64,000 bases of DNA from an uncultured Bacilli bacterium. Its GTDB lineage: Bacteria; Bacillota_I; Bacilli_A; RF39; UBA660. Positions 17,087 through 60,791 of the stretch are shown here, piece by piece. Numbering within the stretch: position 1 is the first letter of the stretch; every line of letters begins with the position of its first letter. The stretch spans positions 51,415 through 115,414 of the forward strand of contig CAKOXO010000004.1 in assembly GCA_934130165.1 (NCBI GenBank), read 5' to 3'. The translations under genes were made by a program, and so were the position numbers. The notes below the pieces were generated by a model. The model had not been told where the DNA came from. It ran no database searches and saw only the letters and a list, made by a program, of their open reading frames with translations.

Positions 17087-18496
17087 ATGAAAAATACTAT
17101 AAAGATGATTAAAAAAAAATTAGGACCAAGTAAAGACTATATTTATAAAGAGATGATTGTAGATAAAACCTCTGTCTATTTAATATTTTCAGAGGTATTA
17201 ACTAGTGGTGATAATGTTAATGAATACATTTTAAAAGGATTAGTTACATTATCAAAAAAAGAATTAAAAAAACTTGAAAACTACTTGCCAACTAATAATA
17301 TTACAAAAATTAGTAAAGAAGAAATAACTGATTACATCAATAAAGGATTCGTAATATGTTTAGTAAATAAAGATATTTATGCAATAGAGATTAGGGCTAG
17401 TTTAGAAAGAGGTATTACTACAATCGAAAGTGAATTATCAGTAAATGGTCCGAAAGATTCTTTTTCAGAAAATTTTAATACTAATTTAGGTCTTATTAGA
17501 AGACGTATTAAAAGTGATAACTTATGGTGGGATGAAGTAAATCTAGGCGATGGTTCTAAAACAAAAATTGGTGTTTTATATATGAAAGATATTGTAAATG
17601 ATAATCTCCCTAAAGCTGTAATTGACAGATTAAATAAAATTGATATTGATGGAATAATTGATTCAAATTATTTAAAGGATGAACTTGAGAGTGATAACAA
17701 TAGCTTTTTTCCTACTATAATGTCAACAGAAAGACCTGATAAAGTAGCAATGGCACTATTAGAAGGAAAGGTTGCTATATTAGTTGATATGTCCTCATAT
17801 ATATTAATTTTACCTAACTTTTTTATAGACTATTTTAAAACTTGTGATGATTACTATCAAAAATCTATTAATACAACATTCATTAGAGTTATAAGAATTT
17901 TTGCATTTTTTATTTCAATTTTTATACCTGCTTATTATATTGCTGTAACAACATATAATCATGATGCAATACAGCTTCCACTTCTTTTACTACTCAAAGC
18001 TCAAAGAATGTCAGTTCCCTTCCCTGCTGTTGTTGAAGCTTTATTTATGATTATTTCATTTGAAATATTACGTGAAAGTGATATTAGAATGTCTTCAACC
18101 ACTGGGAGTGCCATTTCTATATTAGGAGGTATTATATTAGGTGATGCCGCTGTTAGTGCAGGAATTATGTCCCCTATTATGATAATAATAATTGCATTAT
18201 CTTCTATTGCTGGATTTGTATTCACATCTATTGAACTTGTTAATGCTATTAGAATGTACCGAATTATATTTTTATTCTTAGCGTGTACTTTAGGACTATA
18301 TGGAATATATTTGGGTGCCGTATATTTGTTATATAAACTAATAACTATTAAATCATTTGATAAACCGTATTTAGCACCCTTTTCTCCATTCATCAAAACA
18401 GAATTTAAAGATGCTATAGTAAAAGCTAAAAACAAAGGAAAAAAATATAGAAATCCTTTACTATCAAAAAATAAATTAAGGGGTGAATATAAGTGA
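17087..18496 (+). CDS. gerAA: spore germination receptor subunit A (GerAA family)
   Basis: Soluble N-terminal domain ('SVNGPKDSFSENFNTNLGLIRRRI') followed by 4-5 C-terminal transmembrane helices. 469 aa. Confidence 0.8.
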   Translation: MKNTIKMIKKKLGPSKDYIYKEMIVDKTSVYLIFSEVLTSGDNVNEYILKGLVTLSKKELKKLENYLPTNNITKISKEEITDYINKGFVICLVNKDIYAIEIRASLERGITTIESELSVNGPKDSFSENFNTNLGLIRRRIKSDNLWWDEVNLGDGSKTKIGVLYMKDIVNDNLPKAVIDRLNKIDIDGIIDSNYLKDELESDNNSFFPTIMSTERPDKVAMALLEGKVAILVDMSSYILILPNFFIDYFKTCDDYYQKSINTTFIRVIRIFAFFISIFIPAYYIAVTTYNHDAIQLPLLLLLKAQRMSVPFPAVVEALFMIISFEILRESDIRMSSTTGSAISILGGIILGDAAVSAGIMSPIMIIIIALSSIAGFVFTSIELVNAIRMYRIIFLFLACTLGLYGIYLGAVYLLYKLITIKSFDKPYLAPFSPFIKTEFKDAIVKAKNKGKKYRNPLLSKNKLRGEYK

Positions 18497-29163: not shown

Positions 29164-30996
29164 ATGGTTACATTTGATTATAAAAAAACTCCAATAACGC
29201 AAATTGCAGATTATATTATTATGTATGCTGCAAAAAGTGGCGCTAGTGATATCCATTTTGACCCAAAAGAAAACGGTCTGATGGTACGAATAAGAATCGA
29301 TGGAGACCTACAAGATTATACTTTAATACCTCCAGATTACGAAAGAAATTTAACTACAAGATTAAAATTACTAGCTAATATGAACATCACAGAAAGCAGA
29401 CTTCCTCAAGATGGAGCAATCAAAAGACAATTCGGAAAACTTTACCTAGATATGCGTGCATCTTCTCTTCCTACTAATGAAGGGGAAAAAATAGTTATTC
29501 GTATCTTAGATTATAGTAGAAGCTTACAAGGATTAGAGCATCTTGGTTTTTCGCATACTAATTTTGAAAAATTAAAAAGAATGATTCAAATACCAAATGG
29601 TATCATTTTGGTTACTGGTGCTACTGGTACAGGTAAAAGTACTACTACCTATTCTATTTTACAAGCTTTAAATAAACCTGAAACTAATATTATTACGGTT
29701 GAAGACCCAATAGAAATGAATATTGAAGGAATAAATCAAGTACAAGTAAATAGTGAAATTGGTTTAGACTTTGCTACAGTATTAAGATCTATTTTAAGAC
29801 AGGATCCAAATATTATCCTTATTGGAGAAATTCGTGATTCTGAAACAGCTAAAATTGCAGTACGTGCATCAATAACTGGGCACTTGGTATTATCAACAAT
29901 ACATACAAACAATTCTTTATCTACAATTGAGCGTCTTTTAGATATGGATGTTGAAAGATATCTTTTATCTAGCGCTTTAACTGGAATAATTTCACAACGA
30001 CTTGCCAAGATGTTATGTCCTAAATGTAAAATAGAAAGAGAAGCCACTCCTTATGAGAAAAAAATATTTAAAAATGTTTTAAAAGAAGATATTGAAAAGC
30101 TTTATGACGCTAACCATGATGGTTGTGATTACTGTCATAATGGCTACAAAGGTCGAATTGCTGTTCAAGAGGTTTTAGAGATTGATGATGAAATAAGGGA
30201 TGCCTTAAATGATGAAAAATTAGAAAAAGAAGACTTAAGAGAGATGGTATACACATCTAATGTTATTACCCTACTTCAAGATGGGTTAGAAAAAGTACTA
30301 GAGGGAATAACTAGTTTTGAAGAAATTTACAGGATTATTGAAATAGATTCTGATATTACTGAAAATTATGGTGCTGAGTTAACTGAAGCTAATAAGGAAA
30401 GATTAAAACAAGAAAAGCAAAATAAAATAAAAGAAGAAATCAATTCAGAAGTTACTGATTCTGCTAAATCAATTAACTCTGATGATAAAACTTCATCAGT
30501 AGATGATACTGCAACAATATCAACTAATAGTCAAAATGTAGAATCCATTATTAATAAAAATGAGGAAAAGGCAAATATTATTATCACTCCTCCTATGATT
30601 CCAGCATATACAGATCAAGTTAATTATAGTAATCCATCTAACCCTGAACAAATTTCAGATACAAACTCTTCGACCATTAATATTCCTAATGTCCAAAATA
30701 ATTTTTACAATACTAATAATTCAGAAACTAACCAAGATTTAAATTCTACTGATAAAAACATCAATAGTAATAATGAGAGTGAAAAAATCAATTTTTCACC
30801 ATTAAATACGAATGAGACCTCTGCTTCCGGCCCAACCCTAAGCCTACTAACAGAAGTTCCACAAAATTATAATCAAATTGATAATTCAAACCAAGTTAAT
30901 CTTCAACCAACAATCAGCACTATAAATGATGTAGCTAGTCCAACTCTGATTGAAAATCAAGCAAATTCAGAACCAACATTAATAGAAAATAATTAA
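29164..30996 (+). CDS. type IV pilus / competence ATPase (GspE/PilB family, short ComGA-like form) with a ~230-aa N/S/T/Q-rich C-terminal extension
   Basis: Walker A 'VTGATGTGKSTT', Asp/His boxes, and a tetracysteine 'CPKC...CDYCH'. The ATPase core ends near residue 380 and the remainder is low-complexity. Confidence 0.8.
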   Translation: MVTFDYKKTPITQIADYIIMYAAKSGASDIHFDPKENGLMVRIRIDGDLQDYTLIPPDYERNLTTRLKLLANMNITESRLPQDGAIKRQFGKLYLDMRASSLPTNEGEKIVIRILDYSRSLQGLEHLGFSHTNFEKLKRMIQIPNGIILVTGATGTGKSTTTYSILQALNKPETNIITVEDPIEMNIEGINQVQVNSEIGLDFATVLRSILRQDPNIILIGEIRDSETAKIAVRASITGHLVLSTIHTNNSLSTIERLLDMDVERYLLSSALTGIISQRLAKMLCPKCKIEREATPYEKKIFKNVLKEDIEKLYDANHDGCDYCHNGYKGRIAVQEVLEIDDEIRDALNDEKLEKEDLREMVYTSNVITLLQDGLEKVLEGITSFEEIYRIIEIDSDITENYGAELTEANKERLKQEKQNKIKEEINSEVTDSAKSINSDDKTSSVDDTATISTNSQNVESIINKNEEKANIIITPPMIPAYTDQVNYSNPSNPEQISDTNSSTINIPNVQNNFYNTNNSETNQDLNSTDKNINSNNESEKINFSPLNTNETSASGPTLSLLTEVPQNYNQIDNSNQVNLQPTISTINDVASPTLIENQANSEPTLIENN

Positions 30997-55681: not shown

Positions 55682-56584
55682 TTAATCTTCCTTTAAGCTA
55701 ACAAAATAATAATTTTCCTTATCATCTTTCTTAAATGTATATTTATATTCAGAGAATTCTTTATAATTGGATTCATTTATTCTGAAATTATTTGCTTCAT
55801 CTTCTGATACATTTTCACGATATATTTCCTTTTCATTTAAGTCCTTATATATATTTACATTATTAGTTTCTGATGCATATATTGATGACCCATAACTAAC
55901 ATATACATAAACTTCATCGTCTTTAACAGTATATTTATTTATATAGGCATATGCACTATTTGGATCACTACCACCGCATTGTGGTTCAATGTAATAATAA
56001 GTATTAGTATCACTATCATAAATATATCCAAAACAAACATTGAAACTTTTATGATTAACTGTGCCATCTCCAAAATAATTTTTATATTCATCTTCTACAA
56101 CTGATGAGGATATTTTCTTAGCAGAACCCATTCCATTTACTGATACAAATTGTTTAATGTCACTATTTTTAAGATCAGTACTATCTATAGCTTGAAATTT
56201 ATTAATACCAAACAACTCATCTAATACAATTTTTAATTTTAAGTCATCATTTAAGTTATTAAATATATCACCCATTAAACTTTCATCATTTCTAAAATTA
56301 TACATTCCTATTTTTGCCATGTCATAATCATCATTTTGTACTGGACTATAAGTATTCATATAATAAATTTTTTTATTCAAATCATTTATTATTTCCTGAT
56401 TAGTTAAATCTTTTTCTATCTCATCTTTACTACTTTTTACAACTTGTTTTCTTGGCTCAGTTTTTTTTATAATTATTCCCTTATCATAACAAATATATCC
56501 TATTAATCCCAATATAATTAGTATTAATACTATTATTAATATAACTAATCCCACACTTTTCTTTTTATTTTTAACTTCCATCAT
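55682..56584 (-). CDS. N-anchored extracellular protein, unknown
   Basis: Transmembrane helix 'VGLVILIIVLILIILGLIGYICY' and a polar domain. Confidence 0.4.
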   Translation of the reverse strand: MMEVKNKKKSVGLVILIIVLILIILGLIGYICYDKGIIIKKTEPRKQVVKSSKDEIEKDLTNQEIINDLNKKIYYMNTYSPVQNDDYDMAKIGMYNFRNDESLMGDIFNNLNDDLKLKIVLDELFGINKFQAIDSTDLKNSDIKQFVSVNGMGSAKKISSSVVEDEYKNYFGDGTVNHKSFNVCFGYIYDSDTNTYYYIEPQCGGSDPNSAYAYINKYTVKDDEVYVYVSYGSSIYASETNNVNIYKDLNEKEIYRENVSEDEANNFRINESNYKEFSEYKYTFKKDDKENYYFVSLKED

Positions 56585-57846: not shown

Positions 57847-59085
57847 TTAATTTTCAAAAAAACGTCCAAATACCCTATTAATAATATTTTCGTTATTCGA
57901 TTTTTCCTCTTTTATTGATATCAGATTATTAATATCACTATCATTAAGCATTGTAATATTTTTACCTCTTAGTGCTAATTTATCATCATAATACTTAATT
58001 AACCCTAATATACTACTATACTTATTGCTTCTTATACCCATGGTAGTAATATTACAAACCCTAGCCTTTATACCTAATTGATCCTCAATTAAATATTGAA
58101 ATCCGGCCAGTTCGCTTATTCCACCTGTTATAATTATATAACGTATTTCTCTTTTTGTTAAGTTTTTTAATTCTTTTTTTACTTTTTTTAAGATATCAAC
58201 TAATCTAGCCTCTACTATTTTTGATAAATCTAGTTGATTTATTTCAAGCATTTTTCCATCTTTTCGTTTGATTTCATAAACTTCATTGCTATCTGCATAT
58301 GATGAAGATGCAACAACAAAATTCTCTTTTAATCTCCTAGAAATACTACTGTTAATGTGATATATATAAGAAATATCATTATCAACATTTTTACTACCAA
58401 CTGGCATTATTTTATTTTTAATCATTATTCCTTTATTAAATACTGAAATATTAGTTGTTTCTTCCCCAATATTAATAACTGCACCTGCTACTTTATCTAA
58501 TCTATCACTTTTTACTTGGTAATAATCTGCAGTTGAAGAATATCCAATATCCATTACCTCTATACCACTTAATTTCAACACTTCTAAGGTCTTGTATATA
58601 ATTTCTTTTGGAGACATTGATATTAATATTTTTATTCCTAAAGTCTCACCAGATAATCCTTTTGGATCTTTTATATTATCTTTTTCATCAACTTTAAATG
58701 AAATAGGTATTGCTGTTACTAACTCTTCATCATCATGTATTTGTCCCATAATTGCATCCTTTATAACATTTGAAACATCTTTACCAGTTATAGAAGATGA
58801 ATCTGCTACCTCAACGCTTCCTATTGCGATATCCATTCTACATTCATTTGTAGGAACACAGGCAATTGCCTTTGTAATCCTAAAACCTAGTTTTTCATTC
58901 AACTTTTTAAAAGCCTTTTTTGTTGCATTTACTGCTTTTCTTGTATCAACTATAATTCCTCTTTTTATTCCATCAGATGGAGAGTCAATGTTTGCTATAA
59001 CATGAAATTTTTTATTTATCTTATTACAAACTAATATTTTTATACTATTAGTTCCTAGTTCAACACTAGTATAATAATTATTCAT
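57847..59085 (-). CDS. ftsA: cell division protein FtsA
   Basis: Actin-fold motifs '[12 protein letters not shown]', 'DIGYSSTA' and 'GGISELAG'. The start was probably ATG 59083-59085 (GGGAG ribosome-binding site) rather than the track start at 59115. Confidence 0.85.
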
Positions 59086-59303
59086 ATCATCATACTCCCA
59101 TCTTAATATATCCATTATACTATAAATTTAATTTTTCTCCAATACTTTTGAATTTTTTTTATTATTATACGAAGAAAATTCAATAAAATAGCATATAAAA
59201 ATCCGATAAATTATTATTAATCAGATTTTAATTAAAAACGATTTAACACTTGATAAACATTTATCTCTTAATATAAAATGATAGAATCAGAATAATTTGT
59301 AAT

Positions 59304-59888
59304 CTAACTACAACTGAATGAACCATCAGCATATGCATAGCATTGGCCACCACTTCCATGGTTGTAGCACTCAACATTACCATTTGAACTGGCTACGCAA
59401 TTAAATGCAATAGAATGACAGTTAATATTATCATCACCATTAGTACATTCAGATTCCCCAAAATATTTTTTTAATTTTATCAGATTATTCTCATAATCGT
59501 TTGCCCTTATACAAAATAAGGCTCCATCATCAATACACACACCACCTGTAGTACCATCTATATCAAGTGCAGCAAATACATTATGACCCAAAGTTGTGTA
59601 GTCTGTTGTACTTTTTGTTGTTGGTGTCCCATATGCAAAATATTTTGGGGTAAATACTTTATTACATTCATATCCATCAGGGCAAGAGTTTTTAGCTTCT
59701 TCTAATTTAGTTGTTGCCTTTTCATTCACTTCATCTATTGCATCTTTAACATTTGTACTTGACAGTTTTGAATTTGTATTGTCATATACTACTTCATTAC
59801 TTGTTAATACTGTTTTGGCATATCCTATTACACTACTTAATATTAATCCTACTATTATTCCTACTATAAACTTGTAATGCTTCTTCAT
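59304..59888 (-). CDS. N-anchored cysteine-rich secreted/surface protein
   Basis: Transmembrane or signal segment 'FIVGIIVGLILSSVIGYA'. There are 14 Cys residues in the C-terminal ~120 aa ('CPDGYECNKV...CIDDGALFCI...CTNGDDNINCHSIAFNCV...CYNHGSGGQCYAYADGSFSC'). GGAGAG ribosome-binding site. Confidence 0.6.
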   Translation of the reverse strand: MKKHYKFIVGIIVGLILSSVIGYAKTVLTSNEVVYDNTNSKLSSTNVKDAIDEVNEKATTKLEEAKNSCPDGYECNKVFTPKYFAYGTPTTKSTTDYTTLGHNVFAALDIDGTTGGVCIDDGALFCIRANDYENNLIKLKKYFGESECTNGDDNINCHSIAFNCVASSNGNVECYNHGSGGQCYAYADGSFSCS

Positions 59889-59926
59889 CTTTACTCTCCA
59901 CCATATACTATTTACTTTATGTTTAC

Positions 59927-59958
59927 AGTATACCCCCCCCCCCAGAGAAATTTGTCAA
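59927..59958 (-). promoter_or_regulatory. sigma-A-like promoter with an 11-nt homopolymeric G tract (C11 on the plus strand) in the spacer; candidate phase-variation switch
   Basis: The minus strand reads 'TTGACA-aatttctct-GGGGGGGGGGG-TATACT' and lies ~38 nt upstream of the ATG of the Cys-rich gene. The spacer is 20 nt. Losing 3 G would give the optimal 17 nt. Confidence 0.55.
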
Positions 59959-60002
59959 TAAAAAAAAGCTATCCTAGCTTCAATATTATGAAATCATTTT
60001 GT

Positions 60003-60704
60003 TTATTGCATACTATAATTTATATGCCTTAAGTATTCAAATAAAAATGGGCACTTATCTTCTAATGATAGTTCTGTATTATCAACCATATATAATATGA
60101 TATCCCTTGCACATGTAGAATTGTTGATTTCTATTAATTTTATTTTTTCTTGTTCTATCTTTTTATTTTTAAATGTATGCATATTCCATAATTCCATTTT
60201 ATCATCATTTATATCATTTCCATATGTATATATATAACTTAACTGTTTCCTTGAAAATGGTTGATTTTTCACTTCATCAATATCACTATATGAAAAATCT
60301 ACATCTTCAATCAAATCTAATTTCAAAAACACACTGTTTTTCAATATCTTATCTAATTTATTACATGCATATTTTATTTTTCTATCATTTTTAATCATAT
60401 TTTCAAATATCAAGTTTACAACAATTCTAGGAAAAATTTTATGTATCATATAAAAACATCCACATTTATAAATAAAATTATTTTTAGGTCTTAACACTAA
60501 CCATTTAATCCATGAATCCATAAGAAGTAATGTATTATCAAAACCTTCAGTAAAAAACACTTTTTTATTTAGTTCTATATTTTTAGAATTTTGTCCAATT
60601 TTAGGTAATAAACCTACATTAAAAATATTTTTTATATTTTCTTTATCAGTATAATGTAAAAAAACCGTTTTTTTATCTAAATCTTCAACATTAATTAGTT
60701 TCAT
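60003..60704 (-). CDS. hypothetical cytoplasmic protein
   Basis: An ORF of 233 aa with no motif recognised. It lies between divIB and the Cys-rich gene. Confidence 0.35.
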   Translation of the reverse strand: MKLINVEDLDKKTVFLHYTDKENIKNIFNVGLLPKIGQNSKNIELNKKVFFTEGFDNTLLLMDSWIKWLVLRPKNNFIYKCGCFYMIHKIFPRIVVNLIFENMIKNDRKIKYACNKLDKILKNSVFLKLDLIEDVDFSYSDIDEVKNQPFSRKQLSYIYTYGNDINDDKMELWNMHTFKNKKIEQEKIKLIEINNSTCARDIILYMVDNTELSLEDKCPFLFEYLRHINYSMQ

Positions 60705-60791
60705 AAAAGTACTCCTTTTTATACAAGACTATTATATCATCAAAAAATACATTTATTTTATAACAAAAAAAGCCAATTAGCTTTTTATTTT

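Follow-up and report, generated by a model that had tools for sequence, protein, structure and literature searches.

A poly-G tract in the promoter spacer of a cysteine-rich exported protein gene as a probable contingency locus in an uncultured gut Bacilli lineage

The window, by which the whole 64,000-nt stretch analyzed here is meant, has a G+C content of 25.3% and comes from an uncultured Bacilli bacterium of gut metagenomes (Hadza and other cohorts). Its dcw region has the gene order murG, murB, divIB/ftsQ, a 233-aa ORF, a 194-aa gene, ftsA, ftsZ, and dnaG. The 194-aa gene (59304-59888, minus strand) has its ATG start codon at 59888, and 188 nt separate it from ftsA, which follows on the same strand. 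The features in and around it, all on the minus strand and given in the direction of transcription, are as follows.

60003..60704, minus strand: 233-aa ORF, function not assigned, inserted together with the 194-aa gene in the ftsQ-ftsA interval
59960..59981, minus strand: terminator-like hairpin GAAGCUA-GGA-UAGCUUC, then U8; 7-bp stem, -6.3 kcal/mol (51-nt stretch folded)
59953..59958, minus strand: -35 hexamer TTGACA, perfect; invariant in the alignment of paralogous loci (A3)
59933..59943, minus strand: G11 tract, proposed hypermutable spacer element; homologous to G9-G14 at paralogous and orthologous loci
59927..59932, minus strand: -10 hexamer TATACT, abutting the 3′ side of the G tract (GGG-TATACT)
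59889..59926, minus strand: conserved 5′ leader of 38 nt, predicted to be unstructured (MFE 0 kcal/mol)
59894-59902, minus strand: ribosome-binding site GGTGGAGAG, inside the 38-nt leader
59658..59888, minus strand: codons 1-77, signal peptide or membrane anchor, motif and helix; nearly invariant among paralogues (alignment A1)
59307..59657, minus strand: codons 78-194, variable Cys-rich C-terminal domain with eight of the ten Cys (AlphaFold2 pLDDT >90)
59195..59229, minus strand: terminator-like hairpin with a 10-bp stem and U-run, found by folding, 3′ of the 194-aa gene and 5′ of the ftsA promoter

Direct reading of the plus strand gives C11 without interruption at 59933-59943, so that the gene strand has G11 there. 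The initial annotation had singled this run out as an outlier in ~25% GC DNA, and the counts bear this out, the longest other G or C runs in the 64 kb being C5 (two cases) and G5 (one case), with only 8e-5 C runs of at least 11 nt expected from composition in the window. Its placement of the run between a perfect TTGACA and a TATACT is confirmed by the coordinates; the spacer (59952-59933, minus strand) is 20 nt long and consists of AATTTCTCT followed by G11, and the loss of three G would leave 17 nt, as had been calculated. The tract exceeds both the ~8 nt slippage length and the expectation from composition and so has the properties of a homopolymer that serves as an SSR switch. By sequence, the tract is placed between the two hexamers, the ribosome-binding site falls in the 38-nt leader that follows and the ATG directly after this leader, and the spacers seen (18-21 nt) are longer than the 17-nt optimum. 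A consensus promoter scan omits the TTGACA/TATACT pair because the scanner accepts spacers of 16-18 nt only; the poly-G promoter, together with the AT-rich terminators that the consensus scanner leaves unlisted, was judged by eye and by folding. Folding suggests that the terminator-like hairpin at 59960..59981 ends the upstream 233-aa gene and would insulate the poly-G promoter, and with such predicted hairpins on both sides the 194-aa gene is thus probably monocistronic. A G-quadruplex role for the tract was ruled out, there being no further G runs close by, as was transcriptional slippage, since the tract lies upstream of the -10 and would not be transcribed from the poly-G promoter. A 51-aa ORF on the plus strand (59877-60032) crosses the tract antisense to the leader and is unsupported as a gene.

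The initial annotation had regarded the placement inside the dcw cluster, just upstream of ftsA, as unusual. The position is confirmed, but the insert carrying the 233-aa and 194-aa genes is missing in nine of ten contexts with 99%-identical FtsZ, where ftsQ is followed directly by ftsA, and the ftsA promoter region TATAGTATAAT is the same in strains without the insert. On these comparisons of gene order the ftsQ-ftsA interval (window 59116-60791; L036-L045) is best described as a strain-variable insertion hotspot, and it is this, not a functional link to cell division, that the dcw location reflects. The content differs in L039, where the interval has an HTH_7 gene and a 60-aa ORF together with genes for a 257-aa reverse transcriptase (PADLOC RT, E = 4e-32) and for a 241-aa protein homologous to the 233-aa one; this combination may be a defence island. 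The longest ftsA ORF of the window (57847-59115, minus strand, 422 aa, ATG 59115) probably begins 10 codons early; the ftsA calls in all related contigs start at ATG 59085 (412 aa), which has GGGAG before it, and ATG 59115 overlaps a predicted -10 TATAAT (59119-59114). Between ftsZ and dnaG (55682-56584, minus strand) lies a gene for a 300-aa membrane-anchored protein without a family match, which is kept in all close relatives and at whose equivalent position a sister species has a member of the poly-G family described below.

The 194-aa protein has 10 Cys, all of them past residue 68. Its N-terminus is basic and hydrophobic (MKKHYKFIVGIIVGLILSSVIGYA, then KT), and the segment MKKHYKFIVGIIVGLILSSVIGYAKTVL resembles a type I signal peptide or anchor that may be cleaved between the A and the K of G-Y-A-K; no lipobox Cys was found, there being no Cys ahead of residue 69. 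The signal or anchor is followed by a conserved motif of ~30 aa, LTSNEVVYDNTNSKLSSTNVKDAIDEVNEK, then by a helix and then by the C-terminal domain. This domain is predicted to have a compact globular fold (pLDDT >90) in which no tandem repeats were found, and it returned no Pfam family and no relative among solved structures. Neither the 194-aa nor the 233-aa protein gave a significant family in Pfam, NCBIfam, PHROGs, or PADLOC, and the 194-aa protein specifically has no match to the N_methyl prepilin motif (PF07963) and no DUF6273 (PF19789). An exhaustive search for relatives yielded 686 representatives at E ≤ 1e-3, and the Cys-rich extracellular domain is a new family without a known fold relative. 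The earlier description of the product as a Cys-rich surface protein holds for the cysteines and for the signal peptide or anchor; that segment suggests a surface location, although the protein could instead be secreted.

In P0010 and P0030, distant homologues of the Cys-rich domain are joined to type IV pilin N-termini (N_methyl), and in P0012 the domain is fused to a different signal-peptide protein. Two plus-strand genes of the window, at 29164-30996 and 17087-18496, encode a T2SSE-family ATPase (type IV pilus/competence, E = 5e-117) and a GerA spore-germination protein (E = 3e-141), respectively, and the host is therefore likely to form spores and to possess pilus or pseudopilus machinery; the latter is relevant because of the N_methyl fusions in relatives. 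The motif LTSNEVVYDNTNSKLSSTNVKDAIDEVNEK (window 59658-59804, codons 28-77) is repeated in tandem, up to 44 times, in giant proteins from related organisms, one of these proteins, P0211, being 5298 aa long, and it is also found at the C-terminus of a 2128-aa Flg_new protein encoded directly before the homologue P0008 in L017. It could be a docking or oligomerisation motif.

The promoter belongs to a module, composed of the -35, a short spacer, Gn, the -10, the 38-nt 5′UTR, and a leader of ~77 codons, which heads paralogous genes at no fewer than five chromosomal sites in the lineage. These comprise locus A, from ftsQ/233-aa to ftsA (window, L001-L006, L018), locus B, between iPGM and Zip/ftsW (L012-L016, L031-L035), which shares a contig with locus A, locus C, from NAGPA to PFOR (L019-L022), locus D, downstream of gyrA (L023-L030), and, in a sister species, a further site that follows ftsZ (L046, L047). 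P0006, the paralogue at locus B, lies ~10 kb from the 194-aa gene along the dcw region and has the same module. When the upstream regions of loci A-D are aligned, similarity begins at a short T-run right before TTGACA and runs through the spacer, the -10, the leader, and approximately the first 77 codons, and upstream of the -35 the sequence is locus-specific. A locus-specific terminator of the preceding gene usually precedes each copy, with hairpins analogous to that of the window at loci B and C and downstream of ftsZ. Past about codon 77 paralogues and alleles diverge, and in a comparison of two strains identity is 93-100% in the flanks but falls to 47-60% in the C-terminal half of the gene. 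DUF6273 is found in paralogues that share only the N-terminal module, P0013 being an example. Within the 64-kb window no other copy was detected, either by tblastn of the protein or when the UTR was searched for with as many as 3 mismatches allowed. Two scans of JGI metagenomes for the conserved 5′UTR gave 0 matches, the organism not being in that collection, and a scan of GTDB species representatives found no orthologous locus, its only hits being distant matches to the N-terminal motif, one of them in Maribacter and the others in an uncultured Bacilli bacterium.

The initial annotation had proposed that tract length be compared across related genomes, and lengths of G9, G10, G11, G12, and G14 were found among uninterrupted tracts in otherwise near-identical assemblies. 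All of these lengths are assembly consensus, so that 1-nt differences could be partly technical. A protein identical to the 194-aa product is present in 13 metagenome contigs; at locus A with the identical protein the tract is G11 in the window and, among the contigs that could be read, G10 in four (L001, L003-L005) and GGGAGGGGGGG in L002, and a strain with a different C-terminal allele has G14AGG (L018). Locus B has G10 in L012, L014, and L007, G11 in L013, C-G10-A in L015, C-G9 in L031, C-G10 in L034, and C-G12 in L035. The last two encode the same protein and differ by 0 SNPs in 1027 nt, with G10 in one and G12 in the other. At locus C the gene for P0013, with its DUF6273 C-terminal domain, has C-G10 in three samples and C-G11 in a fourth. 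Tract length thus differs between near-identical genomes at each of the three well-sampled loci, and pairs that encode identical proteins, including G10 versus G11 for both P0006 and P0013, are distinguished by the tract alone. Alignments of 6.6-6.9 kb show no indel other than the tract in groups B and B2, and 2-3 indels, the tract among them, in groups A and C, whereas the A/T runs of 8-9 in those contigs show almost no indels, and all 21 G/C runs of at least 7 nt in the 430 kb surveyed (redundancy included) lie inside the poly-G module.

The sister species, whose FtsZ is 93% identical, has the module with G10 3′ of ftsZ in two assemblies and lacks it in a third. This copy, TTGACA-AATCACTCT-G10-TATACT, is situated just past the ftsZ terminator in L046 (5150-6201) and L047 (GCA_948748485.1, SRR26637612) and is absent from L048. 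The gene has a GTG start and yet another C-terminal domain; its annotated 347-aa product is probably too long because the start was called upstream of the promoter.

Locus D provides the counterpart to the variable loci. The P0023 promoter downstream of gyrA, in a close relative or sister species with FtsZ more than 90% identical, reads TTGACA-AAATCCTCT-GGGGGATGG-TATACT, and its interrupted tract, GGGGGATGG, is the same in eight of eight independent assemblies. It has an 18-nt spacer and a TGn extended -10 (TGG-TATACT). The invariance of this interrupted tract, set against the variation of uninterrupted tracts at three multiply sampled loci, is a natural control, and fixation of the promoter makes it likely, as far as sequence comparison can indicate, that its geometry is an active one. 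The initial annotation's suggestion of a hypermutable homopolymer in the spacer agrees with these results, the G9-G14 range between near-identical genomes and the invariant interrupted homologue being what such an element would be expected to give; that it switches expression is our inference. Across the set the spacers observed were 18 nt (12 cases, 8 of them the fixed promoter), 19 nt (12), 20 nt (4), 21 nt (1), and 26 nt (1). None of these alleles has the canonical 17-nt spacer, which would mean either that the promoter is OFF or low in most populations or that it is tolerant of, or indifferent to, spacing. The 17-nt optimum put forward initially is possible, but the ON state may comprise G8-G9 (17-18 nt), the fixed homologue using 18 nt together with TGn.

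Contigs from three samples break exactly at the 3′ edge of the tract, beginning with (T)ACTGTAAAC (L006:1-41, L016:1-39, and L032:1-39), and these come from different assemblers as well as different samples. Assemblies of the lineage tend to break at poly-G promoters, through either heterogeneity of the tract or loss of read quality in poly-G, and annotators and assemblers should take note that its contigs are prone to breakage or mis-sizing there.

The reading that we favor, with a probability of roughly three in four, is that the G11 tract is a contingency locus and that slipped-strand changes of spacer length would make the gene for the exported Cys-rich protein phase-variable. It builds on direct observation of the promoter anatomy, of the conservation of the module among paralogues, of length polymorphism between samples, and of the invariant interrupted control. 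[quoted passage not shown] With n denoting the number of G, the spacer at locus A is 9 + n, such that n = 11 (the window, 20 nt) and n = 10 (the commoner allele, 19 nt) are predicted to be weak or OFF and n = 8-9 (17-18 nt) to be ON, whereas at locus B G10 or C-G9 already yields 18 nt. Both the ON length and a transcription start served by this hexamer pair are thus predictions from promoter geometry. The change of spacing would switch or tune transcription of a putatively monocistronic gene for an exported protein with 10 Cys. Switching would presumably be reversible and would leave populations internally heterogeneous; with at least three copies per genome, each cell would show a stochastic subset of the proteins and the population would display combinatorial subsets. 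If surface-exposed, the protein may act in adhesion or in immune or phage evasion.

An alternative that we consider unlikely is that the tract is a real but static G-rich promoter element, contributing spacer structure or binding a regulator, that expression is not stochastic, and that the length differences are mostly consensus errors. Illumina and Nanopore both miscall long homopolymers, and such a view can draw on the fact that the lengths come from consensus sequences alone and that most differences amount to 1 nt; the tract in L033 (4.7x coverage) is garbled in a way that resembles sequencing error, G14AGG in L018 may derive from a long-read assembly, and no allele has the 17-nt spacer. 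It accounts poorly, however, for a span of 9-14, for G10 versus G12 on an identical background, and for the near absence of indels from A/T runs of 8-9 in the same contigs. Nor would a static element need to stay uninterrupted at every paralogue, and it is the interrupted version that is invariant; G10-11 in a 25% G+C genome would moreover be mutationally costly unless selected. An outright sequencing or assembly artefact, such as the poly-G known from two-colour Illumina chemistry, with the tract absent from the genome, is the least credible explanation of all, the tract occurring at the same nucleotide position with conserved flanks in more than 20 independent assemblies from varied studies, assemblers, and sample sources, and artefactual poly-G falling at read ends and not inside contigs with unique sequence on both sides.

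It is also conceivable, at a very low probability that still exceeds that of an artefact, that the poly-G promoter reads through into ftsA and ftsZ and that tract length stochastically modulates the dosage of division genes, which would explain the dcw position. The 188-nt distance to ftsA on the same strand would permit this, and the AT-rich downstream hairpin may leak, but that hairpin has a 10-bp stem followed by a U-run, ftsA retains its own conserved promoter region, the insert is missing from all but one of the ten contexts with 99%-identical FtsZ, and the same module occurs at unrelated sites, after iPGM, NAGPA, gyrA, and ftsZ.

Returning to the contingency locus, a more tentative proposal, to which we give less than even odds, concerns the origin of the family: the module would be a portable cassette that has time and again been joined to unrelated exported domains, has been placed in single copies next to essential genes, and has exchanged segments between copies by gene conversion. 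The domains joined to it include the Cys-rich domain, DUF6273, and at least two others, and the essential genes beside its copies include ftsA, ftsZ, gyrA, and ftsW. Nucleotides 100-520 of L007 (an 812-bp contig, sample ERZ27287391), compared with window 59577-59997 and with L012:2892-3312, alternate as a mosaic between locus-B and locus-A sequence, changing over at three points only 20-55 nt apart within 300 nt; B-type upstream sequence and spacer are followed by an A-type leader and codons 1-40, B-type codons ~45-68, and an A-type C-terminal domain. Because the segments are too short, this is not a k=141 assembly chimera, and the pattern suggests gene conversion between family members.

SSR switches are known chiefly from pathogens, among them Neisseria, Haemophilus, Campylobacter, Treponema, and Mycoplasma, and the hif switch of H. 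influenzae uses TA dinucleotide repeats in its promoter spacer. The fimbrial precedents from Neisseria and Haemophilus invoked in the initial annotation fit only loosely: hif is built on TA repeats, and porA and opc encode outer-membrane proteins, not fimbriae. The mechanism itself is already known from porA, tp0126, and vlp; what is new is the protein family and the uncultured gut commensal host, and a literature search turned up no earlier account of SSR phase variation in the lineage. Poly-G lies between the -35 and -10 of both N. meningitidis porA and T. pallidum tp0126, the latter being transcribed best at a 17-nt spacer (PMC7864442), and poly-C lies at the -35 of N. meningitidis opc (PMC3447861). 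In porA and opc, homopolymer length sets the promoter geometry and gives high, intermediate, or no expression, termed 'volume control' (PMC7864442; PMC3447861). Their tracts, at ~9-14, are in the same range as those of the gut family, but they are single genes in a Gram-negative pathogen and not a family with a portable promoter-leader module. In T. pallidum, tp0126 and the tpr genes have a poly-G of ~8-11 nt in the promoter, poly-G promoters are shared among the paralogous tpr genes, and tract length varies within and between isolates; the variation and its effect on transcription were demonstrated by fragment-length analysis and GFP reporters (PMC7864442). The gut family resembles tp0126 and the tpr genes in having poly-G promoters of variable length, shared among paralogues, in front of genes for exported or surface proteins, although organism and proteins are unrelated and the variation, experimental in T. 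pallidum, is here deduced from assemblies.

At the level of the system, the closest known counterpart is the Vlp family of M. hyorhinis, in which every vlp gene has poly-A in its promoter (Citti and Wise, 1995, summarised in PMC10502178). Both are multigene families of exported proteins in which each member has its own homopolymer promoter and indels switch transcription (at the predicted level for the gut family), in both, divergent mature C-terminal parts follow a conserved module of promoter, leader, and signal sequence (alignments A1 and A3 for the gut family), and both hosts are low-G+C members of the Bacilli/Mollicutes branch. The gut family is not a Vlp member, however: its tract is poly-G and not poly-A, it has no lipobox, no C-terminal tandem repeats, and no sequence homology to Vlp, its members stand singly beside housekeeping genes and are not clustered, and its host has a cell wall and sporulation genes (GerA). 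The Vmm system of Mycoplasma mycoides has TA dinucleotide repeats in the promoter spacer (summarised in PMC10502178). As in the present proposal, a change in repeat number in Vmm and hif alters the -35/-10 spacing and switches transcription, although a dinucleotide repeat moves in 2-nt steps, in contrast to the homopolymer here.

Work on phase variation in the human gut has centred on invertible promoters, mainly of Bacteroidales. The loci described here would represent a multi-copy SSR contingency system in uncultured low-G+C gut Bacilli from Hadza and other human-associated metagenomes, governing a family of exported proteins whose C-terminal domains are hypervariable. Existing reads allow tract-length distributions to be counted, and these may provide a marker for bet-hedging, for immune (IgA) or phage pressure, and for bottlenecks in an unculturable commensal. 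Should the cassette proposal also prove true, each copy would be turned ON or OFF independently while recombination shuffled the domains, which would amount to Vlp/Tpr-like combinatorial surface variation in a human gut commensal, found purely from metagenomes.
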